64,000 nt of DNA from an uncultured Verrucomicrobiae bacterium (GTDB lineage Bacteria; Verrucomicrobiota; Verrucomicrobiia; Chthoniobacterales; JAATET01). The DNA is taken from assembly GCA_963749035.1 (NCBI GenBank), contig CAVVKW010000004.1, positions 1,335,550 through 1,399,549 of the forward strand, read 5' to 3'. The stretch's first letter is position 1. Each line of letters begins with the position of its first letter. The notes under the pieces were generated by a model. The model did not search any database. It saw nothing but the letters and a program-made list of their open reading frames with translations, and was not told the origin of the DNA. Shown in pieces: positions 18,077 through 56,138 of this stretch. Position numbers and translations under genes: made by a program.

Positions 18077-18224
18077 CGCAGGAAAGGGGGAGAAGTGCCA
18101 GAGAACTACGGCAAAGAGGAGCGAGTTACCGTTGCTGCATTCCTGCCCTGGCGGGGTTCACCCGTCCGCAGTCCATAGCCCCTGGCAGCGGTGACAATAC
18201 GAATCCTCCGCCGCCGCGCAACCC

Positions 18225-23845: not shown

Positions 23846-23866
23846 CTCAACTCTCAACTCTCAACC
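23846..23866. repeat. Heptamer tandem repeat CTCAACT x3
   Basis: CTCAACT CTCAACT CTCAACC, read directly. Lies in the recO/nuoD convergent spacer and is followed by decayed units AATAACT ATAAACT. Confidence 0.8.
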
Positions 23867-31832: not shown

Positions 31833-33437
31833 ATGGCCTCGTCCCCCTCCCCGCCGTGTGATTCCATCCCGCGGACCGTGAAACCGTATTTCATCACCAC
31901 CGCGATCGACTACACCAACGGCGCCCCGCACACCGGGCACGCCTACGAAAAGGTCCTCGCCGATGCCCTCGCCCGCTTCCAACGCCAGTCTGGACGCGAC
32001 GTGTTCTTCCTGACCGGCGTCGACCAGCACGGCCAAAAAGTCCAGCAATCTGCCGAAAAACTCGGCATCCAACCCGCCGAATTTGTCGAAAATCTCACCG
32101 CCCAGTTCCGCTCCCTCTGGAGCGATCTCGCCATCAGCAACAATGCCTGGGCCGCCACCACCGACCCGCTCCACGTCCGCTGCGTGCAAGGCATCCTTCA
32201 GCAACTTTTCGACGCTGGCCAGATCTACCGCAGCACCCAGACCGGCCACTACAGCGTCCGCCAGGAACAATTCGTCACCGACAAGGAACGCGGACCCGAC
32301 GGCGAATTCGGCCCCGAGTGGGGCGAAGTCACGCTCATCGAGGAAGAGAACTACTACTTCCGCCTCGAGAAACACCGCGACTGGCTCCTCGACTACGTCG
32401 ACACCCACCCCAACTTCATCACTCCCGAATTCCGTCGGACCGAACTCCGCAACGCCGTCGAAAAGCTCACCGGCGACCTCTGCATCTCCCGCCCCAAGTC
32501 CCGCCTCCAGTGGGGCATCGAGCTCCCCTTCGACCCCGACTTCGTCACCTACGTCTGGTTCGACGCCCTCATCAACTACATCTCCTTCGCCGGCTACGAA
32601 CCCTCATCCCCACTCAACACTCAACTCTCAACACTCAACTTCACCTGGCCCGCGCTCCACGTCATCGGCAAGGACATTCTCATCCCCGCCCACGGCGTTT
32701 ACTGGCCCATCATGCTTCACGCCATCGGCTTCCCCGACGACGCCATCCCACCGCTCCTCGTTCACGGCTGGTGGAACATCTCCGGCGCGAAGATGAGCAA
32801 AAGCCTCGGCAACGTCGTCGCCCCCACCGAACTCATCGAACGCTACGGCGCCGATGCCGTCCGCTATTATCTGCTCGCCGACATCGTCACCGGACGCGAC
32901 GCCGACTTCAACCCGACCCGCCTCGAAGAGCGCTACAACTCCGATCTCGCCAACGGCATCGGCAACCTCCTCAACCGCACGCTGAACATGGCGAAAAAGT
33001 ATCGCGAAGGAGTCCTCCGATCCGACACCACCGACGGACTCCGCCCCGCCGCCGAGTCCGCCGTCGCGGCCTACACCGCCGCCTTCGAGCGGTCCGATCC
33101 TCGCGCCGCCATCGACGCCATCGTCGACCTCGCCAACGCCGCCAACCAACACGTCGACCAGTCCGCCCCGTGGAAACTTGCCAAGTCTGAGAGTGACGCC
33201 GCCGCTCTCGACACCGTCCTCTACCACCTCGCCGAAACGACCCGCATCCTCGCCATCCTCCTCAACCCCATCGTCCCGACCGCAGCGGAGAAGATCGCCA
33301 CCCAACTCGCCATCGACCCCGCCACCCTCACGATGGCCAACGCGACCTGGGGCGGCCTCCCCGACGGCCACACCCTCTCCGCCCCATCGCCGGTCTTCCC
33401 CCGAATCGACACGACGAAGTCGAGTGTTGAAAGTTGA
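31833..33437 (+). CDS. metG: Methionine--tRNA ligase
   Basis: 534 aa from ATG 31833. HIGH-type HTGHAYE and KMSKSLGN. The track ORF from 31734 overlaps the preceding permease. Confidence 0.95.
   Translation: MASSPSPPCDSIPRTVKPYFITTAIDYTNGAPHTGHAYEKVLADALARFQRQSGRDVFFLTGVDQHGQKVQQSAEKLGIQPAEFVENLTAQFRSLWSDLAISNNAWAATTDPLHVRCVQGILQQLFDAGQIYRSTQTGHYSVRQEQFVTDKERGPDGEFGPEWGEVTLIEEENYYFRLEKHRDWLLDYVDTHPNFITPEFRRTELRNAVEKLTGDLCISRPKSRLQWGIELPFDPDFVTYVWFDALINYISFAGYEPSSPLNTQLSTLNFTWPALHVIGKDILIPAHGVYWPIMLHAIGFPDDAIPPLLVHGWWNISGAKMSKSLGNVVAPTELIERYGADAVRYYLLADIVTGRDADFNPTRLEERYNSDLANGIGNLLNRTLNMAKKYREGVLRSDTTDGLRPAAESAVAAYTAAFERSDPRAAIDAIVDLANAANQHVDQSAPWKLAKSESDAAALDTVLYHLAETTRILAILLNPIVPTAAEKIATQLAIDPATLTMANATWGGLPDGHTLSAPSPVFPRIDTTKSSVES
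32611..32638. repeat. Heptamer tandem repeat CACTCAA x4 inside the metG coding sequence
   Basis: CACTCAA CACTCAA CTCTCAA CACTCAA, read directly. Translates in frame as part of PLNTQLSTLN. Confidence 0.85.
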
Positions 33438-33495
33438 GTGTTGAGTGGAGAGCCCTCTGCATCTCAGGCCACTCAACACTCAACACTCAACACTC
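33422..33495. repeat. Long hairpin built from inverted heptamer arrays (TTGAGTG)n / (CACTCAA)n spanning the metG stop
   Basis: Arms 33422-33448 and 33469-33495 pair at 25 of 27 positions around a 20-nt loop. The metG stop TGA (33435-33437) lies inside the 5-prime arm. No U-tract follows. Confidence 0.8.
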
Positions 33496-33512
33496 ATCAC
33501 ACCCCCGCCACA

Positions 33513-34507: not shown

Positions 34508-34539
34508 CGCGAAGGCGCGAAGGCGCGAAGGCGCGAAGA
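34508..34539. repeat. Octamer tandem repeat CGCGAAGG x4, 5 nt after the acyltransferase stop
   Basis: CGCGAAGG CGCGAAGG CGCGAAGG CGCGAAGA, read directly. Confidence 0.85.
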
Positions 34540-34650
34540 GCATTTCCCAGCAAAGAGTCCGTCACGAATCTCTCCACGGGTCGACCAGCTTCGAGAGCGT
34601 TCATGAAAACCTCAACACTGAAGTGGAGCCGAAAAAGTGGACAGGGGAAG

Positions 34651-35577
34651 TTAGTCTGTTTTGGTTGTTAGGTTATTGAGTGAGTTTTCGTATTCGAGGG
34701 GTGATTGGTAGTCGAGGGAGCTATGGAGTCGGCGTGGATTGTAGAAGGTGTCGATGTAGTCGAAGAGCATCGCGTCGGCTTGGGCTCGGGTGGCCGGAGG
34801 GCCGGCGTGGAAGCATTCGGTTTTGAGAGTGGACCAGAACGACTCCATGGCGGCGTTATCATAGCAGTTGGCGCGTCGGCTCATGCTCGGCGTCACGCCG
34901 TGGGAGTCGAGCAGGGAGCGGAAAGCCCCAGCGGCGTACTGGCTGCCGCGGTCGGAATGGTGGAGTTGTGGACGAGTTCCTGAGAGCAAGACGGCGCGGC
35001 TGAAGGCGCTTTCGACGAGGGTGCTCTCCATGGTTGATCCCGTTTTCCAGCCAACGATCCGACGGGAAGCGAGGTTCATTTCGGCAGCCAGATAATGCCA
35101 GCCTTCATCGGTGGGTAGGTAGGTGATGTCAGCCACCTATGTCTGCCCAGGGGTAGACGAGGTCGTGTTGGTCGTATCGGACAAGAGCCGATTCGGGGCG
35201 ATGGGATGAGGGTGGCGGCTGTCGGTCGTGCGGGGCCGATAACGACCCTTGCGCAAGGCACATAGTCCTTTCTGGGACATCAAGCGCGAGATACGTCGTC
35301 GCCCGCAGACTTGCCCTTCTCGATCAAGGACGACGCGCAGCCGACGGGTCCCGTAGGTTCGGCGGTTCTCGTGGAAAGCCGCTTCGATCCGATCACTCAG
35401 ATCGGCGTCTTCGCGCTGGCGCAGACCTTCGGTCTTTTTCCCGTGGGCGTAGTAGCCGCTGCGACTGACTTCCAGAGCCAGGCAAAGCTCCTTGAGGGTA
35501 AAGGTGTTCTTTTCCATCGTCTCGATCAGCGCGAAGCGTTCCACGGTTCCTGACCCAAAATGGCGCAGGCTTTTTTT
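34651..35577 (-). pseudogene. IS3-family transposase OrfB (DDE/rve integrase core) interrupted by an in-frame TAG
   Basis: The two track ORFs (35137-35745 and 34651-35136) are in the same frame and contiguous. Sequence reads ...CAG ACA TAG GTG GCT GAC ATC ACC = PGQT*VADITY, where family members carry W (PNQxWxxDITY). DDE residues are otherwise intact (ADITY, HSDRGSQY, NAAMESFW). Confidence 0.8.
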
Positions 35578-35876
35578 AAAATGTCTCGTTGGCGGGTGGT
35601 GAACTCCAGTTCCCTTCTCAGGCGAGCGTTCTCGCTGGCGAGGTCCTGGGGCCGCCCCGCCGCCGGGACGGGTCCTCCTCCCCCCTCCGGACCCGTCCCG
35701 GCGGCGGTTCTCCCGTAAAGCTTCTTCCACCTGCCCAGGCTCCACGTCGAGATCCCCAGCTCAAGCGCCAGTTGTGTCGCGCTTCGCGTTCCGCTTTCCA
35801 GCATTTCCACGGCGCTTCGTTTGAACTCTTCGTCAAATCGTCGCCCCTTGTTCGTTTCTCTTGGTTTTTCGTTCAC
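35526..35876 (-). CDS. IS3-family transposase OrfA (HTH)
   Basis: 116 aa, GTG start. FKRSAVEMLESGTRSATQLALELGIS helix-turn-helix and a leucine-zipper-like C-terminus. Confidence 0.85.
   Translation of the reverse strand: MNEKPRETNKGRRFDEEFKRSAVEMLESGTRSATQLALELGISTWSLGRWKKLYGRTAAGTGPEGGGGPVPAAGRPQDLASENARLRRELEFTTRQRDILKKACAILGQEPWNASR
35571..35577 (-). promoter_or_regulatory. Programmed -1 frameshift slippery site (A AAA AAA) of the IS3 element
   Basis: Minus strand reads GAC ATT TTA AAA AAA GCC in the orfA frame. A -1 shift gives KKSLRHFGSGTVERF, continuous with the orfB frame. Confidence 0.7.
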
Positions 35877-35953
35877 GGCTTTTTCTTGGTCTATCCCGTG
35901 TCCGCATTTTCAGCACCACCTCAACACTGCTCTCGTCGAACCAACTCATCCCC

Positions 35954-35977
35954 CTTCGCGTCTTCGCGTCTTCGCGT
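35954..35977. repeat. Octamer tandem repeat CTTCGCGT x3 (= ACGCGAAG on the minus strand), just after the methyltransferase stop
   Basis: Read directly. It is the inverted orientation of the 34508-34539 array. Confidence 0.85.
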
Positions 35978-42453: not shown

Positions 42454-42488
42454 AATCCGAAATCCAAAATCCGAAATCCAAAATTCCC
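42454..42488. repeat. Heptamer tandem repeat AATCCRA x5 filling the spacer before trpA
   Basis: AATCCGA AATCCAA AATCCGA AATCCAA AATTCCC, directly followed by the trpA GTG at 42489. Confidence 0.85.
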
Positions 42489-43311: not shown

Positions 43312-43557
43312 ATGCTAGCCCGCCTCTTCGCCGCCGCCCTCGCCCTCAGCCTCACCGCCTGCATCTCCATCGACATGCTCGCCCGCGCCGAAGGCCGGAT
43401 CCCCCCATCCGAAGCCAACAATCCCCGCGCCGTCGCCTACCCGCCCCAGCCCGCCTACTACGCCCTCGTCCCGCTGACGCTCCCCCTCGACCTGATCACC
43501 TTCCCCGCCCAATACATCTACTTCAACACCGGCGACCGAAGAGCCCCCCAGTATTGA
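43312..43557 (+). CDS. Small hypothetical lipoprotein
   Basis: 81 aa from ATG 43312. Lipobox LSLTAC. Lies 10 nt after the trpA stop. Confidence 0.5.
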   Translation: MLARLFAAALALSLTACISIDMLARAEGRIPPSEANNPRAVAYPPQPAYYALVPLTLPLDLITFPAQYIYFNTGDRRAPQY

Positions 43558-43616
43558 GGAATAGACCCAGGCAATTGACTCGTTCGCTCCGGTAGCCGCC
43601 TGACTCCAGGGCTCCG

Positions 43617-43643
43617 TTAATCCTGACAATCCTGTTAATCCTG
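43617..43643. repeat. Nonamer tandem repeat WWAATCCTG x3 abutting the recD2 stop
   Basis: TTAATCCTG ACAATCCTG TTAATCCTG, then T and the stop codon complement CTA at 43645-43647. The gene-sense strand reads CAGGATT x3. Confidence 0.85.
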
Positions 43644-43644
43644 T

Positions 43645-45813
43645 CTAGTTAGAGACCCCCGCCAGCCGAACCCCCAGCCCCCCACACCGCTCGCGCACGC
43701 GGTTATTTCGCACCGCCGCCGCCAGTGCCTTCCGCTGGCCGACCACGATCACCAGCGACTTCCCCCGCGTGATCGCCGTGTAGATCAGATTCCGCTGCAG
43801 CAGCACAAACTGCTCCATCGCCACCGGCACGATCACGCACGGAAACTCCGAGCCCTGGCTCTTGTGCACCGTGATCGCCCACGCCGGATCCAGTTCGTCC
43901 AGTTCGCCAAAATCATAGACGATCCGTCGCCCCTCGAACTCCACCACCGCCTCCCGCTCGCCCCCGTCCACCGCCCGCACCACCCCGATGTCCCCGTTGA
44001 ACACCTCCTTGTCGTAGTTGTTCCGCGTCTGGATCACTTTGTCGCCCTCGCGGAAAACAACTCCAAACCGCTCCACCTCCCCCGCACCCTCCCGCTTCGG
44101 GTTCAACTCCCCCTGCAGCCGAGTATTCACGTTCCGCACCCCGAGTTTCCCCTTGTTCATCGGCGCGAGCACCTGAACGTCCCGCACCGGATCAAACCCA
44201 AACTTCCCCGGCACCCGCCGCGCCGCCACCTCGACCAGCGTCTCCAAAGCCGCGTCCGTATCCTCCCGCTCGATGAAGAAAAAATCCCCACCCTCCCGGT
44301 GCGTCAGATCGGGAAGCGCACCGGCGTTGATCGAATGGGCCGCCGTCACGATCCCACTCGCCTCCGCCTGACGAAACACCACGTCCAGCCGCGCCGCCGG
44401 GACGGCCCCACTCCCGATTACGTCCCGCAGAACCAGTCCCGGCCCCACACTCGGCAACTGATCCGCGTCCCCCACCAGCAGCACGTTCCCCCGCCCCGGC
44501 ACCGCCCGCAAAAACCGCGCCATCAACGGCACGTCGACCATCGACACCTCGTCCATCACGAACAAATCTCCCGGGAGCGGGTTCCCCTCGTGCCGCTTGA
44601 ACCCCCCGCCCCGCTCCGGCTCCAGCAGCCGATGAATCGTCATCGCCTCCATTCCCGTCGACTCCGCCAGCCGCTTCGCCGCCCGCCCCGTCGGCGCACA
44701 CAGCACGCACCGCACCCCCTTCGCCCGCAAAATCTTCAGCACCGAATTCACCAGCGTAGTCTTCCCCACCCCCGGTCCACCCGTCACCACCGCCACCGCC
44801 CGCGTCACCGCCACCCGCAGCGCCGCCGCCTGCGAATCCGACAACGTCTTCCCCGTCCGTTCCTGCACCCAACCCAGCGCCCGCTCCACGTCCATTTCCG
44901 GATACCCCGTCACCTCGCGCCCCGCCAGCACCCGCAACCGCTCCGCCACCATCCGCTCCGCCGCGCGCATCGGCGGCAGATAGATCAACTCCCGCCCGCC
45001 CAACGTCTCCGCCACCAGCTCCTCCCGCTCCACCGCCCCCGCCAGCACCCGTTCTGCCAATTCCTCCCCCACCTCCAGCAGCTCCACCGCCGCCCGCACC
45101 AGATCCCGCCGCACCATCGCGCAATGACCCTCCCCGCCCGCCTCGTCCAGGCAGTGCGCCAACCCCGCCCGCACCCGCAGCACCGAGTCGCCCGCCAGCC
45201 CCAGCTTCCCCGCGATCCCGTCCGCGCTCTTGAACCCAATCCCCCGAATGTCCCGCGCCAGGCAGTAGGGATCGGTTCGAATCCGCTCGATCGCCTCCTC
45301 CCCGTAGCTCTTGTAAACCCGCACCGCCCGACTCGTGCTCACCCCGTTCGCGTGCAGGAACACCATGATCTCCCGCACCACCCGCTGCTCCGCCCACGCC
45401 GCCTTGATCGACCGCCGCCGCTCCGTCCCGATTCCCCCGACCTCGCTCAGTCGCCCGGACTCGTTCTCGATCACCGAAAACACCTCCTCGCCAAAAGCCG
45501 CCACCAGCTTCTTCGCGTAAACCGGCCCAATCCCCTTGATCATCCCGCTCGCCAGATACTTCTCGATCCCCTCCCGGCTGTCCGGCGGCTGCGTCTCCAC
45601 CCTCTCCGCCTTCAATTGCATCCCGTGCTCCCGATCGCGCACCCACCGACCCTCCGCCGTGATCCATTCCCCCGGCGACACCACCGCGACGTTCCCGATC
45701 ACCGTCACCAATTCCCGCCGCCCGCGCACGTCGACGCGCAACACCGCAAACCCCGTCTCCTCGTTGTGAAACGTCACCCGCTCCACCACACCCCGCACAC
45801 CATCGTCCGTCAT
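43645..45813 (-). CDS. recD2: RecD2-type SF1 ATP-dependent DNA helicase
   Basis: 722 aa from ATG 45813. Walker A GGPGVGKTT, DEVSMVD, LLVGDADQLPSVGPG; C-terminal SH3-like region and YTAITRGK. Confidence 0.9.
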   Translation of the reverse strand: MTDDGVRGVVERVTFHNEETGFAVLRVDVRGRRELVTVIGNVAVVSPGEWITAEGRWVRDREHGMQLKAERVETQPPDSREGIEKYLASGMIKGIGPVYAKKLVAAFGEEVFSVIENESGRLSEVGGIGTERRRSIKAAWAEQRVVREIMVFLHANGVSTSRAVRVYKSYGEEAIERIRTDPYCLARDIRGIGFKSADGIAGKLGLAGDSVLRVRAGLAHCLDEAGGEGHCAMVRRDLVRAAVELLEVGEELAERVLAGAVEREELVAETLGGRELIYLPPMRAAERMVAERLRVLAGREVTGYPEMDVERALGWVQERTGKTLSDSQAAALRVAVTRAVAVVTGGPGVGKTTLVNSVLKILRAKGVRCVLCAPTGRAAKRLAESTGMEAMTIHRLLEPERGGGFKRHEGNPLPGDLFVMDEVSMVDVPLMARFLRAVPGRGNVLLVGDADQLPSVGPGLVLRDVIGSGAVPAARLDVVFRQAEASGIVTAAHSINAGALPDLTHREGGDFFFIEREDTDAALETLVEVAARRVPGKFGFDPVRDVQVLAPMNKGKLGVRNVNTRLQGELNPKREGAGEVERFGVVFREGDKVIQTRNNYDKEVFNGDIGVVRAVDGGEREAVVEFEGRRIVYDFGELDELDPAWAITVHKSQGSEFPCVIVPVAMEQFVLLQRNLIYTAITRGKSLVIVVGQRKALAAAVRNNRVRERCGGLGVRLAGVSN

Positions 45814-48262: not shown

Positions 48263-48276
48263 CGAATCCCTCTCAA

Positions 48277-48636
48277 CTACAAACTCTCAACTTCCAACTC
48301 TAACCGCGGCGCATCCCCCCACAAATCCTCCAGCGAGTAAAACTCGCGCGACTCGTGATGAAACACGTGCACCACGACTTGCGCGTAATCGATCACGATC
48401 CACCGACTCCCCGCCGCCCCGTCCTCCGCGTAAGGACCAAAGCCAAACCGCTCCCTGACCCCCGAGCGCACCGAGGCCCCGATCGCCCGGAGTTGCGGGT
48501 CCGACATCCCGCTACACACCACGAAATAGTCGCAAAACGACGACTTCCCACGCAGGTCCAGCACCGCAATGTCTTCCGCTTTCCGGTCCGCCGCGTATTC
48601 CGCGCAAGCCCTCGCCAGCGATTCCGCCTCACTCAT
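48277..48636 (-). CDS. rsfS: Ribosome silencing factor RsfS
   Basis: 119 aa. DYFVVCSG ... WIVIDYAQVVVHVF ... FYSLEDLW family pattern. Confidence 0.9.
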   Translation of the reverse strand: MSEAESLARACAEYAADRKAEDIAVLDLRGKSSFCDYFVVCSGMSDPQLRAIGASVRSGVRERFGFGPYAEDGAAGSRWIVIDYAQVVVHVFHHESREFYSLEDLWGDAPRLELEVESL

Positions 48637-48725: not shown

Positions 48726-48778
48726 AAATCCGAAATCCAAAATCCCGAATCCGAAATCCTCAATCCGAAATCCAAAAC
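48726..48778. repeat. Heptamer tandem repeat AAATCCN x7-8 between nadD stop and rsfS
   Basis: AAATCCG AAATCCA AAATCCC GAATCCG AAATCCT CAATCCG AAATCCA AAAC. It runs straight into the nadD stop codon complement at 48779-48781. Confidence 0.85.
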
Positions 48779-49342: not shown

Positions 49343-49362
49343 CACCACGCAGTATTCCCTTC

Positions 49363-49397
49363 CAATCCAAAATCCAAAATCCAAAATCCAAAATCAA
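49363..49397. repeat. Heptamer tandem repeat AAATCCA x5 filling the nadD/nagZ divergent spacer
   Basis: CAATCCA AAATCCA AAATCCA AAATCCA AAATCAA, directly followed by the nagZ ATG at 49398. The whole spacer is only 55 bp. Confidence 0.85.
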
Positions 49398-52088: not shown

Positions 52089-53807
52089 ATGTCCCGCGCC
52101 CTCTTCGGAATCCTCACCGCCACCGCCGCGGCCAACGTCACCGCTGTGCTGCTCGGCATCCTCTGCTCCGGCCTCGGACCCGTCACCGCTTGGATCTCGC
52201 TCATCGCCGGCCTCGGCGCCGGCGGCGTCACCGTCTGGCAAACGAGCGGCTCAGCGCCGCCGTCCGCCCGCCCGTCCCGCACCGAGTGGTTCGTCATCAT
52301 CGCTTTCGTCCTCGCCTGCCTCCGTGCCTTTCTCTGGCTGATCTACCAAAAAAACGGCCGCTGGTTCGTCCTTTCCCCCTACAACCTCGGCGACCTCTCT
52401 CTCCACCTCGGCCTCATCAACTATCTCGCGTCGGGCGTCCCGTTCTGGCCCGACAGTCTCATTCTCATCGGCGACACCCTCCGCTACCCGATCGGCGCTG
52501 ACCTTTTCAATTCCCTCCTGCTCCTCGCCGGCCTGCCGGCCGTCCAAGGCCTCGTTCTCGTCGGCTTCACCGGCGCGATCATCACCGGCTGCGCCCTCTG
52601 GCTCTGGGGTCGAGGGTTCGCCATTGCCGCTCTTCTCTTCAGCGGCGGCCTCGCTGCGTTCCTTCTCCTCGGCGGCGAGAATGGCTGGAAACCTCAGGAT
52701 TTCCAGGCGGCCGCCGAATGGCCGTGGAAGAATTTTTTCCTCACCATGCTCATCACCCAGCGCGGTCTGCTCTTCGCGCTCCCCACCGGCCTCCTGCTGC
52801 TCGCCGACTGGCGCGCTCGCTGGCTGACCAAGACCCCGACAGCCGCTCTCCCGACGTGGGCCGCCGTCCTCCTCTACGCGACGATGCCGCTCACGAACGT
52901 TCACACGTTCCTCTTCCTTAGCTTTGTCCTCCTCGGCATCTACCTGCTCGCGCCCCTCACAACCGACCGCCAGGCGACGCGGAAGTTCGTCGTCATTTCC
53001 GTTCTCCCCGCCACCGTCACCCTCGCCCTCGTCACCGGCCTCTTCTCCGCCGGGGGCGGCGTCCACTGGCAACCCGGCTGGCTGCAGGACGAAGAACCGG
53101 TCTGGTTTTGGATCCGAAATTTCGGACTCGTTCCGTTTCTCTGGATCGCCACCTTGCTCGTCGCCGTCGTCCGCCGCGACCGCCGGGCGCTCGCGATCCT
53201 CGCCCCGGCGACGGCCTTCTTCCTCGTCTGCTGCTTCGTCTCGTTCGCCCCGTGGCCCTGGGACAACGTCAAACTCATGCTTTGGTGCTGGCTCGCCGCC
53301 GTTCCGTTCGTCTGGCAATTTATTCTCCGTCCTTTGCCTCTCATTGCCCGCGCTCCCATCCTCTTCGTGCTCTTCTTCAGCGGCGCAATCTCACTCTTGG
53401 GCGGACTCGACGGTCGGCACGGCTACAGCTTGATCCCCCGCGCTGATCTCGACCGCGCCGCGTCCGCCCTTCGTCAACTCCCGCCCACCGCGCGCGTCGC
53501 CGTTTCACCCGACTACAACCACCCCGTCCTCATCGCGGGTCAGCCCGTCGTCACCGGTTACGAAGGACACCTCTGGAGTCACGGCCTCGACTACCGCGAC
53601 AAGTCGGACGCGCTCGATGATTTGATGAACAAACGCCGCGGCTGGCGCGAGCAGGCGAAAAGCCTGGGAGTCGACTACCTCTACTGGGGAAAACCCGAGC
53701 GCCAGGCCTACGGCTACAACCAGAGCAAATGGAGAAGCGACCTCCCGATCGTCGTCCAAGGCGAAGGCTTCACCATCTACGACCTCCGCGAACCCGCGCA
53801 GGAATAG
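52089..53807 (+). CDS. Polytopic membrane protein of unknown function (about 13 TM plus soluble C-terminal domain)
   Basis: 572 aa, starting 7 nt after the preceding gene. Hydrophobic throughout to about residue 440, then a soluble tail with PVVTGYEGHLWSHG. Confidence 0.6.
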   Translation: MSRALFGILTATAAANVTAVLLGILCSGLGPVTAWISLIAGLGAGGVTVWQTSGSAPPSARPSRTEWFVIIAFVLACLRAFLWLIYQKNGRWFVLSPYNLGDLSLHLGLINYLASGVPFWPDSLILIGDTLRYPIGADLFNSLLLLAGLPAVQGLVLVGFTGAIITGCALWLWGRGFAIAALLFSGGLAAFLLLGGENGWKPQDFQAAAEWPWKNFFLTMLITQRGLLFALPTGLLLLADWRARWLTKTPTAALPTWAAVLLYATMPLTNVHTFLFLSFVLLGIYLLAPLTTDRQATRKFVVISVLPATVTLALVTGLFSAGGGVHWQPGWLQDEEPVWFWIRNFGLVPFLWIATLLVAVVRRDRRALAILAPATAFFLVCCFVSFAPWPWDNVKLMLWCWLAAVPFVWQFILRPLPLIARAPILFVLFFSGAISLLGGLDGRHGYSLIPRADLDRAASALRQLPPTARVAVSPDYNHPVLIAGQPVVTGYEGHLWSHGLDYRDKSDALDDLMNKRRGWREQAKSLGVDYLYWGKPERQAYGYNQSKWRSDLPIVVQGEGFTIYDLREPAQE

Positions 53808-53956
53808 CTTTCGTCGTCTCATCGATAGGCCAGTGCCATTCGCGGCCGGGACCGATCAATGACGAACCCGCCCACTTCTCAAACGGTGTACTCAGACTCC
53901 AGGCACCGCCACCGCGCGACAATCAATCCTTTGCGACGCAAGCCGCACAGCAAAAA

Positions 53957-53983
53957 GAAATCCTAATAATCCCGTAAATCCTG
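53957..53983. repeat. Nonamer tandem repeat WWAATCCYN x3 next to the stop of the 53992 gene
   Basis: GAAATCCTA ATAATCCCG TAAATCCTG, ending 8 nt before the stop codon complement TCA at 53992-53994. Same core and orientation as 43617-43643. Confidence 0.8.
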
Positions 53984-53991
53984 TCCAACCC

Positions 53992-54696
53992 TCACTCCTC
54001 AACTGGAGGGGCATCTTCAACCGAAGCTTCCGCGTCAGACGAACCCGCCACTCGCGCCAGCGACCGCAGCGAATCGAACACCTGCACCGCGCTCTGTCCC
54101 GCGACCGTGTTCGCGTATTGGTTTTCCAATTTCTGAAACGACCGCAGCGCCCCATTTCGATCGGCCGAGGAGAGTTCCAGCTCCGCCTTGAACAGCAACG
54201 CGGGTGCCGCCGTGAACGAGCTCGCGTTCGCATCGGCCACGCCCTGAAAATCCGTCACGGCCTTCTCGACGTCACCGGCCAACGCAGCGTTCTCCGCCAA
54301 CGCGATTCCTGCCAGCGGAGCAAACGGGTGATCTGGCTGCGAGTCGCGAAATTCCTGAAGCACGGCGTTCGCCTCGTCCAGCTTCTCCTCCTCCCGCAGG
54401 GTCGCAGCCAGCAGCATCGCCGCGTTCCCAGCCACCACGGACGCGCCATGATCGTCGATCACCGCGCGCAATTCCTCAGCCGACGTCGCCCCCGCCAACT
54501 GCTCCTCAGCCGCGATCCGCGCCGAGTGCGAGTAAGCCATCCACCCGAATATCGCCAAGAGCCCGACGACGATCGCAAGCGCACCAGCGATGATGGCGAC
54601 CTTGTATTTCGCCCAAAGAATCTCGAAGGAATCCGGACCGACGTCGTAAATTGGTTCGTCGGTCGCAGCTGAAGCAGGGGTTGGTTCGTTTGCCAT
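53992..54696 (-). CDS. Membrane-anchored TPR-like protein (YfgM-like)
   Basis: 234 aa. N-terminal anchor VAIIAGALAIVVGLLAIFGWMAY followed by an Ala/Leu-rich helical repeat region. Confidence 0.6.
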   Translation of the reverse strand: MANEPTPASAATDEPIYDVGPDSFEILWAKYKVAIIAGALAIVVGLLAIFGWMAYSHSARIAAEEQLAGATSAEELRAVIDDHGASVVAGNAAMLLAATLREEEKLDEANAVLQEFRDSQPDHPFAPLAGIALAENAALAGDVEKAVTDFQGVADANASSFTAAPALLFKAELELSSADRNGALRSFQKLENQYANTVAGQSAVQVFDSLRSLARVAGSSDAEASVEDAPPVEE

Positions 54697-56031: not shown

Positions 56032-56058
56032 GCTCGCGCAAGTCGGCCCAGCTGATAT

Positions 56059-56138
56059 CTCTGCCTCTCCCTGCCTCTCTGCGCCTCTGCGCGAGACCCC
56101 GTCGTCTCATCCTGCTTCGCGTTTTCGCGTCTGCGCGT
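56059..56138. repeat. Pyrimidine-rich octamer repeats (CTCTGCSY and YTTCGCGT types) in the phhB/RND convergent spacer
   Basis: CTCTGCCT CTCCCTGCCT CTCTGCGC CTCTGCGC (56059-56092) and CTTCGCGT TTTCGCGT CTGCGCGT (56115-56138). The second block resembles 35954-35977, including the flanking GGATGAG on the minus strand. Confidence 0.8.

Follow-up and report, generated by a model that had tools for sequence, protein, structure and literature searches.

Nonamer triplets behind two genes of an uncultured Verrucomicrobiae bacterium as possible solo arms of a widespread REP/REPIN-like element

Introduction

Direct repeats of the heptamer TAACTGA occur in Beggiatoaceae, Thiocystis, Cyanobacteria and Bacteroidetes as intergenic, unstructured arrays of two to six copies (MacGregor 2015, PMC4679880). 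They lie mostly just upstream of start codons, are spread sporadically across phyla with no evident transfer mechanism and show no functional pattern among the neighboring genes, and an RNA-binding reader (S1, Csp or CsrA) has been proposed for them (PMC4679880). These repeats are the closest published phenomenon to the subject of this report, two arrays of three 9-nt units each (nonamer triplets) that follow the stop codons of recD2 and of a YfgM-like gene in a 64,000-nt stretch of DNA from an uncultured Verrucomicrobiae bacterium (contig CAVVKW010000004.1); this whole stretch is called the window, and all coordinates are those of its + strand. A literature search for the repeat by its sequence strings, in any context, retrieved no relevant description. 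Here we describe the anatomy and distribution of the nonamer arrays and tentatively interpret the two triplets as solo arms of a widespread dispersed extragenic element resembling repetitive extragenic palindromic (REP) sequences and their doublets (REPINs), with arms that would be read as iterons, an interpretation that we regard as quite possible if somewhat short of probable.

Results and Discussion

The two triplets of the window

In the sense of the minus-strand genes that they follow, triplet 1 (43619-43645) consists of the units GACAGGATT, AACAGGATT and GTCAGGATT and triplet 2 (53959-53985) of GACAGGATT, TACGGGATT and ATTAGGATT, and both are solo arms. At site 1 the minus strand reads TAG|ACAGGATT AACAGGATT GTCAGGATT, the first G of the triplet being at the same time the final base of the TAG that ends recD2 (43645-43647), and at site 2 the TGA of the YfgM-like gene (53992-53994) is followed by 6 nt and then by the triplet. 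A preliminary description of this DNA had placed three 9-bp units directly after the stops of two minus-strand genes, which is accurate apart from a slight correction of the coordinates to those given here. As minus-sense RNA, site 1 contains CAGGAUU three times and site 2 contains CAGGAUU, CGGGAUU and UAGGAUU. The pattern AATCC-N4-AATCC-N4-AATCC matches the window at these two sites only, against 0.02 matches expected per window, and none of 100 shuffled windows contained two matches; the triplets are non-random.

The two 3' regions were also said to share a block further downstream, and they do: a CCTGGAGTC block (minus sense), represented by the exact 9-mer GACTCCAGG, lies 8 nt past triplet 1 (43602-43610, minus strand) and again 55 nt past triplet 2 (53895-53903, minus strand). 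Two copies of GACTCCAGG in 64 kb are unremarkable alone (0.56 expected; 10 of 100 shuffles contain two), and what is noteworthy is that both fall inside the two triplet-bearing intergenic regions. The block at 43602-43610 might be what is left of an inverted partner arm, namely its terminal unit in decayed form (AATCCTG-TC).

Neither site has a recognizable structure. Folding gave nothing beyond shuffled sequences (z = +0.3 to +1.4; +0.37 and +1.36 at the two sites), with no GGA-loop hairpins among the predicted folds, and a terminator scan found no terminator-like site and no hairpin in either triplet-bearing intergenic region. An intrinsic terminator, composed of a GC-rich hairpin and a U tract, was rejected on the same grounds and because the T-run of the family stands 5' of the arm, the reverse of the terminator order. 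Rfam, searched with the window and 16 family loci at the gathering score and with site 1 at E <= 10, returned nothing at the arrays.

A family with a fixed unit and a fixed copy number

Scanning one genome per species with the pattern AATCCYRNNAATCCYRNNAATCCYR yielded at least 120 matches against about 17 expected by chance. The family counts given here and below describe the arrays listed in this sample and are not totals; once Asn-Pro-Asp/Glu coding repeats had been set aside, 97 arrays were left among the matches listed, and most of their gene contexts rest on heuristic open reading frame (ORF) calls. The consensus, which on the other strand reads (T)n[T/A]GACAGGATT-N-ACAGGATT-N-ACAGGATT, is tighter than the searched pattern and is found in most matches. 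Among the matches listed, the unit positions that the pattern had left open are occupied by T at position 6 (94%), G at position 7 (97.5%) and T at position 8 (82%), while position 9 varies freely (T 40%, A 33%, C 21%, G 5%), which leaves eight fixed positions per unit; the last unit is followed by T (93%), C (75%) and then an A-rich run. Copy number is equally constrained: 89 of the 97 listed arrays have three units, six have four and two have five, and strict chains of units likewise peak at three.

These figures bear on the simplest alternative, that the arrays are neutral slippage repeats in A+T-richer intergenic DNA whose orientation follows strand bias. Slippage would suit the heptamer array between nadD and rsfS described below, which has seven units here and five in a relative of 94% identity, as well as the presence of several other short tandem families in the genome and the fact that all arrays are C-rich on the C-rich strand. 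The nonamers behave otherwise, since their number is three in 92% of the listed arrays, the units of one array differ at position 9 and so cannot be fresh products of slippage, one 8-nt core is shared by different phyla, three independent samples have identical arrays, and an orthologous copy described below is conserved amid unalignable flanks. For the nonamers slippage is largely refuted, and as an account of the whole it is scarcely credible.

By record title, the carriers among the matches listed belong to at least 15 phyla, a number that errors in the binning of metagenome-assembled genomes (MAGs) may inflate. They comprise Chthoniobacterales and other Verrucomicrobiota, Kiritimatiellota, Planctomycetota, Chloroflexota, Acidobacteriota, Gemmatimonadota, delta- and gammaproteobacteria, Bacteroidota, Chlamydiota, Armatimonadota, Leptospirales, two Firmicutes, several candidate phyla and one archaeal, Methanoperedens-labelled contig. 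Cultured carriers or their plasmids include Thiobaca trueperi DSM 13587, four Spirosoma oryzicola plasmids and the Thiodictyon syntrophicum Cad16T plasmid pTs485, and some phage-like IMG/VR contigs carry the element too. The phage collection that we searched gave no real match to the nonamer element. Many viral matches were excluded as false positives, being long collagen-like Gly-X-Y coding repeats of giant viruses and other viral contigs, in which ACAGGATTT is read as T-G-F (loci L127, L129, L130, L135, L138-L141 and L144, and likewise L145, L148, L151, L154, L155 and L160).

The element is dispersed and multicopy, with two copies in the window, two more in the recD2 locus L285 of a relative, four in the 3.4-kb locus L109 and copies at eight places on pTs485, and nearly all copies are intergenic. 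An all-against-all BLAST comparison of the ORFs within 2.5 kb of the arrays found no protein family in more than three loci, which indicates that neither a transposase nor a regulon is linked to the element.

Likeness to known short sequences was partial and the spacing misfit for the DnaA box, the pho box, the NarL heptamer and the sigma-H promoter, and equally for boxA, the tRNA T-arm and the DNA uptake sequence. The commonest unit, AACAGGATTA, is identical to what we take to be a universal segment of 16S rRNA just 5' of the 790 loop (...CAAACAGGATTAGATACCCTGGTAGTCC...), and site 1 continues as CAGGATTA-N6-CCCTGG-AGTC where 16S rRNA presumably has CAGGATTA-GATA-CCCTGG-T-AGTC.

Retention at orthologous sites

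Six loci orthologous to that of recD2, all with gene calls, were compared: L285 (94% identity), L286 (86%), L287-L289 (84%) and L290 (71%). L286 (86% protein identity) has the triplet after recD2, in the form GACAGGATT GACGGGATT CTCAGGATT; L285, L287-L289 and L290 lack it. Between the window and L286, 24 of its 27 bases are identical and the atypical third unit TCAGGATT is common to both, while the flanks cannot be aligned. As judged from this sequence comparison, the two copies probably owe their likeness to common descent and purifying selection, and the retention of a triplet amid unalignable flanks points to a functional recognition site. In L286 (12160-12190) the array itself contains the TGA of recD2, where units 1 and 2 meet, such that the repeat encodes the last residues of the protein.

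The order nagZ-nadD-rsfS-CPXCG-transglutaminase-cinA-recD2 is largely conserved in L285-L289 without being complete everywhere (nadD is missing in L287), and the gene downstream of recD2 differs among these five close relatives, though L286 and L289 both have dnaB. With its changing neighbor 3' of recD2, the array thus sits at a recurrent synteny break.

Triplet 2 is identical in two further independent samples of the same species (L001 and L002), and the corresponding site after the YfgM-like gene is empty in the orthologous loci of relatives of 70% and 53% identity (L003 and L004). A second case of orthologous retention is provided by L047 and L077, which keep the element after the stop of the same gene. 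The two additional nonamer arrays of L285 lie in a convergent and in a divergent intergenic region, respectively.

Inverted pairs, outer ends and strand

An inverted partner is found 10-110 nt away in 33-36 of the 97 arrays listed, about two thirds of which are solo. Pair polarity is fixed, with the G-arm first and the GACAGG ends outside in nearly every pair, and a T-run stands 5' of each arm; paired copies measure 63-160 bp, with terminal inverted repeats of roughly 27 bp and A+T-rich flanks. The arm itself is made of three direct 9-mers with no self-complementarity and no internal palindrome. Between paired arms, complementarity at the free positions was seen in 29 of 72 cases, with 35% expected, and this lack of covariation indicates that each arm is selected for its own sequence and not for a hairpin. 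No target-site duplication was found in the flanks of pairs, and TA occurs on both sides in only 3 of 22 pairs. The terminal inverted repeats recall miniature inverted-repeat transposable elements (MITEs), whose flanking duplication the pairs lack.

The two ends of an arm differ in their relation to genes. In 27 of the 97 listed arrays the GACAGG end has the end of a long same-strand ORF within 40 nt, compared with 7 arrays for the opposite end and the other sense, and gene starts lie beyond the outer end in 19 cases and beyond the inner end in 11. The asymmetry between outer and inner ends is real (46 versus 18 among the matches listed, p = 0.0006) and is the pattern expected if solo arms are remnants of pairs.

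The window also has an extreme strand asymmetry, with 25,135 C versus 15,116 G on the + strand and, whichever strand carries the genes, a GC skew of about -0.25 in each 1-kb bin; relatives (L003, L004 and L285-L289) have skews of 0.18-0.32. Such values, far above those typical of bacteria, seem to be a trait of this Chthoniobacterales-like clade. Within the clade, all seven independent arrays have their AATCC strand on the C-rich strand (p = 0.016), and this uniform orientation relative to strand composition fits a single-stranded, replication-coupled mode of spread.

Possible interpretation as a REP/REPIN-like dispersed element

The anatomy and distribution of the element, its fixed copy number, the polarity of its pairs, its retention at the recD2 site and its mixed gene orientation are direct observations, from which we infer protein binding, a mode of spread and a local effect. 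A complete element comprises two inverted arms with their GACAGG ends outside and 10-110 nt between them, and in each arm a T-rich tract leads into 9-bp units, exactly three in number and arranged head to tail. The units would serve as iterons, whose GGATT/AATCC core three adjacent protomers or modules of one sequence-specific protein would read on DNA, possibly on single-stranded DNA. This reader, or a HUH-/transposase-like ancestor of it, may have spread the arms within genomes and between phyla without target duplication, single copies being kept later by selection at gene boundaries. At the convergent junctions of the window, the bound protein would mark or insulate the end of a transcription unit.

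Several points weigh against this interpretation. The 2.5 kb around the arrays yielded no gene for a binding protein, a transposase or a RAYT, the arms have neither the internal palindrome nor the 5' GTAG by which classical REPs are defined, and REP and MITE families are as a rule confined to one species or genus whereas the nonamer family is found in many phyla. The two-thirds share of solo arms is unusual for MITEs, orientation outside the window's clade is not significantly tied to GC skew (38 versus 24, p = 0.13), and the strong conservation of orthologous copies suggests a host function, which a selfish element could do without. The census behind the family, moreover, consists of the at least 120 matches listed, most of whose loci have heuristic ORF calls.

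Cross-phylum identity of a non-coding element is rare, and the known cases (parS, dif, DnaA boxes, boxA and CIRCE) each led to a conserved protein partner. If the REP/REPIN-like interpretation holds, Verrucomicrobiota, Chloroflexota, Proteobacteria and Bacteroidota would have in common a 27-nt element of three-unit design with a near-invariant 8-nt core, which is also borne on the plasmids and phage-like contigs of its carriers. The identity of the reader would then reveal either a REP-like system that has ends of a new kind and spreads horizontally with great success or a conserved gene-boundary factor. The puzzle posed by repeats of the TAACTGA type would also become testable, several nonamer carriers being cultured isolates.

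Heptamer arrays, gene orientation and readings at the RNA level

Three heptamer arrays with the same AATCC core accompany the triplets. The first, AATCC(G/A)A in 4.4 copies (42454-42484, +), begins past the stop of the preceding + gene (42448), ends 4 nt (42485-42488) short of the GTG start codon of trpA (42489) and has AAUCC in the gene sense. The second comprises seven GGATTNN units in gene sense (48726-48777, -), directly after the nadD stop and upstream of rsfS, and reads GGAUU in the sense of both genes. The third, AATCCAA in 4.6 copies (49364-49395, +), fills the 55-nt spacer between the divergent nadD and nagZ (49343-49397), ends 2 nt before the nagZ ATG and reads AAUCC in the nagZ sense. 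All five AATCC arrays, two of nonamers and three of heptamers, have AATCC on the + strand and cluster within 11.5 kb of the 64-kb window (p = 0.0045). The trpA-proximal array had been described as opposite to the triplets, which holds with respect to gene sense only. The nagZ-proximal array is kept in four relatives (L285, L286 and L288 among them) and decayed in one (L289), and the nadD-rsfS array has its seven units in the window against five in L285; the copy number of the heptamers thus varies, unlike that of the nonamer triplet. A metagenome scan for heptamers was swamped by telomeres: the contigs that it returned (L167-L284) are mostly short, A+T-rich rumen contigs with inward-facing (CCCCAAT)n at both ends, presumably gene-sized macronuclear chromosomes of rumen ciliates that are unrelated to the window.

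The triplets had initially been read, tentatively, as a post-transcriptional code of the CsrA/Rsm type, that is, as binding sites in 3' untranslated regions with GGA motifs 9 and 18 nt apart that would act as targets or sponges. The repeat of CsrB is CAGGA(U/A/C)G, which CAGGAUU fits at six of seven positions, and a distance of 18 nt is favorable for the CsrA dimer. Repeated motifs of the A(N)GGA or CAGGAxG kind are indeed present in the transcript sense at both sites, the count of about six GGA was correct for the first 100 nt at each site, and GGAUU-sense copies follow stops 27 times against 7 for the other sense among the matches listed. The GGA density, however, is only about twofold above that of the very G-rich minus strand (3.2 per 100 nt), and the stop-codon bias vanishes once outer-end adjacency is accounted for: in a census of array against gene orientation among the matches listed, 38 gene adjacencies are in the GGAUU sense and 26 in the AAUCC sense, a mixed result (p = 0.17) that leaves the asymmetry of outer and inner ends real and the sense bias not significant. 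A nonamer array in AAUCC sense 35 nt after a stop codon and the array in a divergent region, both in one relative, likewise speak against CsrA. So do the trpA and nagZ heptamers, which had been included in the supposed code and read AAUCC just before start codons. Comparison of copies for structure and covariance lends no help either, in view of the missing significant fold at the sites and the chance-like complementarity of paired arms; the GGA motifs are not in hairpin loops, and in paired copies they fall inside the stem of roughly 27 bp. The family extends by record title to Bacteroidota, Chlamydiota and one archaeal-labelled contig, and Bacteroidota, Chlamydiota and archaea, to our knowledge, lack CsrA. 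A tblastn search with the CsrA proteins of E. coli and B. subtilis found none in the 64-kb window or the fetched loci, which is weak evidence given that 64 kb of the genome were covered. We therefore consider CsrA/Rsm binding very improbable.

A broader RNA-level account is the main rival to the REP/REPIN-like interpretation. The arrays could be host RNA elements, unstructured tandem GGAUU or AAUCC motifs bound by an oligomeric single-strand RNA-binding factor, and would then be proposed to set mRNA 3' ends, stability or the translation of the neighboring cistron. Candidate readers would be Rho (C-rich AAUCCUGU, rut-like, at the ends of convergent units), RNase E (GG|AUU fits RN|WUU), Hfq, S1, Csp or the ribosome. 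The recurrence of the AATCC core at periods of both 9 and 7 would be better tolerated by a single-strand binder than by proteins arrayed along a DNA duplex, the arrays come out unstructured in folding predictions, and many copies among the matches listed stand 0-20 nt after stops (27 of 97) or before starts (19 of 97), the latter at 6-49 nt from the start codon with an A-rich leader and a Shine-Dalgarno sequence between. A universal reader would be the easiest explanation of cross-phylum conservation, and we count in favor of it that ACAGGAUUA is identical to what we take to be a universal stretch of 16S rRNA helix 24. The TAACTGA repeats have been interpreted alike (PMC4679880). The same lack of a significant sense bias that troubles CsrA applies here, in inverted pairs the motifs would be hidden within a long stem, and none of the named factors is known to need so specific an 8-nt motif, so that we judge this account unlikely, if still serious.

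A related proposal, which we rate as rather more doubtful, is that of a near-universal bacterial cis-element read by a conserved host machine and not by a mobile-element protein, which would set transcript or translation boundaries at gene ends. One possibility for such a host reader would be a single-strand binder of the AAUCCUGU/ACAGGAUU core, which is presumably identical to ACAGGAUUA of 16S helix 24.

A further candidate is a compact promoter or operator: either a promoter with a T-rich UP-like tract, a -35 element (TTGACA/TAGACA) in unit 1 and a -10-like CAGGAT/TAGGAT 16 nt on in unit 3, or an operator for a ribbon-helix-helix-type repressor. Every unit junction is TTNACA, a scan flagged TGGACA-16-TAGGAT on the minus strand at 53987-53960 (a weak match, 9 of 12 positions), the arrays of L109 lie 17-19 nt before start codons, and the third heptamer array fills its divergent spacer. 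The omega protein of inc18 plasmids binds contiguous heptads, and its site WATCACW resembles AATCCRA. The -10 element is weak, though, matching at three of six positions in the family consensus; promoters at the window's triplets would fire antisense into the convergent genes, and paired arms would face each other. The conservation of the middle unit is left unexplained, and Bacteroidota, which carry the element, use different promoter elements. A promoter or operator accordingly appears improbable.

Genes around the triplets and other repeats of the window

The gene identities first given for the two upstream genes are upheld. Homologs of the product of recD2 (43645-45813, -), a gene whose stop codon runs into the outer end of triplet 1, have the RecD2 domain set, those of 71% identity being named Chthoniobacterales or Terrimicrobiaceae, and the YfgM-like gene upstream of triplet 2 (53992-54696, -) matches TPR_21 (PF09976). 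Both triplets lie at convergent gene junctions. Triplet 1 is within an 87-nt intergenic region bounded by a small ORF convergent on recD2 (43312-43557, +), an inferred gene call for a lipoprotein-like product with a signal peptide and an LTAC lipobox and with no Pfam match; an in-frame readthrough ORF after the recD2 TAG (43315-43629) was dismissed as the antisense shadow of this gene. Triplet 2 is within a 184-nt intergenic region bounded by the gene for a 572-aa membrane protein (52089-53807, +), which is convergent on the TPR_21 gene.

Other tandem repeats occur in the window. A second heptamer family, CACTCAA/TTGAGTG, is found at 33417-33500, 32611-32639, 23846-23865 and 48270-48301; it includes an inverted pair between two + genes (TTGAGTG in 3.7 copies, then CACTCAA in 4.4) that would form a long hairpin, and other copies are partly coding, one array encoding the C-terminus LELEVESL of rsfS. 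Octamer-like arrays of CTCTGCG/CTCCGCG/CTTCGCG plus TGAG follow the stop of a 1060-aa gene (56058-56138), and very similar arrays of the CTCTGCG type adjoin nonamer elements in Kiritimatiellota and phage-like contigs (L021, L088, L109, L117 and L133), which suggests a second repeat family common to the Planctomycetota-Verrucomicrobiota-Chlamydiota group. In a Verrucomicrobiae MAG (L051, 1100-1250) a nonamer triplet stands together with three AATCCGC x4 heptamer arrays and a (TGATGGAG)n array; short tandem-repeat families of several kinds thus occur side by side in other Verrucomicrobiota as they do in the window.

An IS3-family insertion sequence (34540-35950, -) with HTH_Tnp_1, HTH_21 and rve domains is flanked by inverted octamer arrays, CGCGAAGG x4 (34508-34538) and CTTCGCGT x3 (35954-35977). 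The GC skew flips sign inside it and a 12-nt direct repeat, ACCTCAACACTG, is present near both ends; by this arrangement the element looks like an insertion into the spacer of a tandem-repeat hairpin. The insertion sequence IS1397 targets REP loops. A bacterial small signal recognition particle RNA is encoded at 18093-18187 (-; Rfam RF00169, 55.8 bits).

Comparison with known systems

The heptamer arrays within a few nucleotides of the trpA and nagZ starts closely resemble the TAACTGA repeats. The nonamers differ from them in their 9-nt unit, AATCCTGTN, in a copy number fixed at three and in their frequent inverted pairs; both copies in the window follow stops, and 19 of the 97 arrays among the matches listed stand 6-49 nt before starts, where TAACTGA repeats mostly lie just upstream of start codons.

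With CsrB/RsmZ-type sponges and CsrA targets the arrays have in common tandem GGA units and the likeness of CAGGAUU to CAGGA(U/A/C)G. They differ in having three motifs only, placed outside hairpin loops and in both gene orientations, in their long inverted pairs and in a taxonomic range beyond that of CsrA.

MITEs such as Correia/NEMIS, ERIC and RUP are like the paired copies in size (63-160 bp), in terminal inverted repeats (roughly 27 bp) and in A+T-rich flanks, and like the family as a whole in being multicopy, intergenic and near or overlapping gene termini. Nonamer pairs, in contrast, have no target-site duplication and no conserved internal sequence, and most copies are single arms; no parent insertion sequence with nonamer ends was found.

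REPs and REPINs resemble the nonamer element in being short (about 30 nt), dispersed extragenic units near gene ends, in forming inverted doublets of fixed polarity together with many singlets, in the missing target-site duplication and in the retention of some orthologous copies. The IS3-family element between inverted repeat arms in the window recalls IS1397 and REP loops. The nonamer arm departs from REPs in being built from three direct 9-mers, with neither an internal palindrome nor a GTAG head, in a sequence kept across many phyla and in having no RAYT gene near the arrays (within 2.5 kb).

The iteron-like character of the arm finds its parallel in the operator arrays of ribbon-helix-helix proteins, namely those of omega of pSM19035 and the metboxes of MetJ. 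These belong to one regulon or plasmid, whereas the nonamers are dispersed over many phyla. They too are contiguous repeats of 7-9 bp with no spacer, direct or inverted, and their one protomer pair per unit is the model that we invoke for how the nonamer arms may be read.

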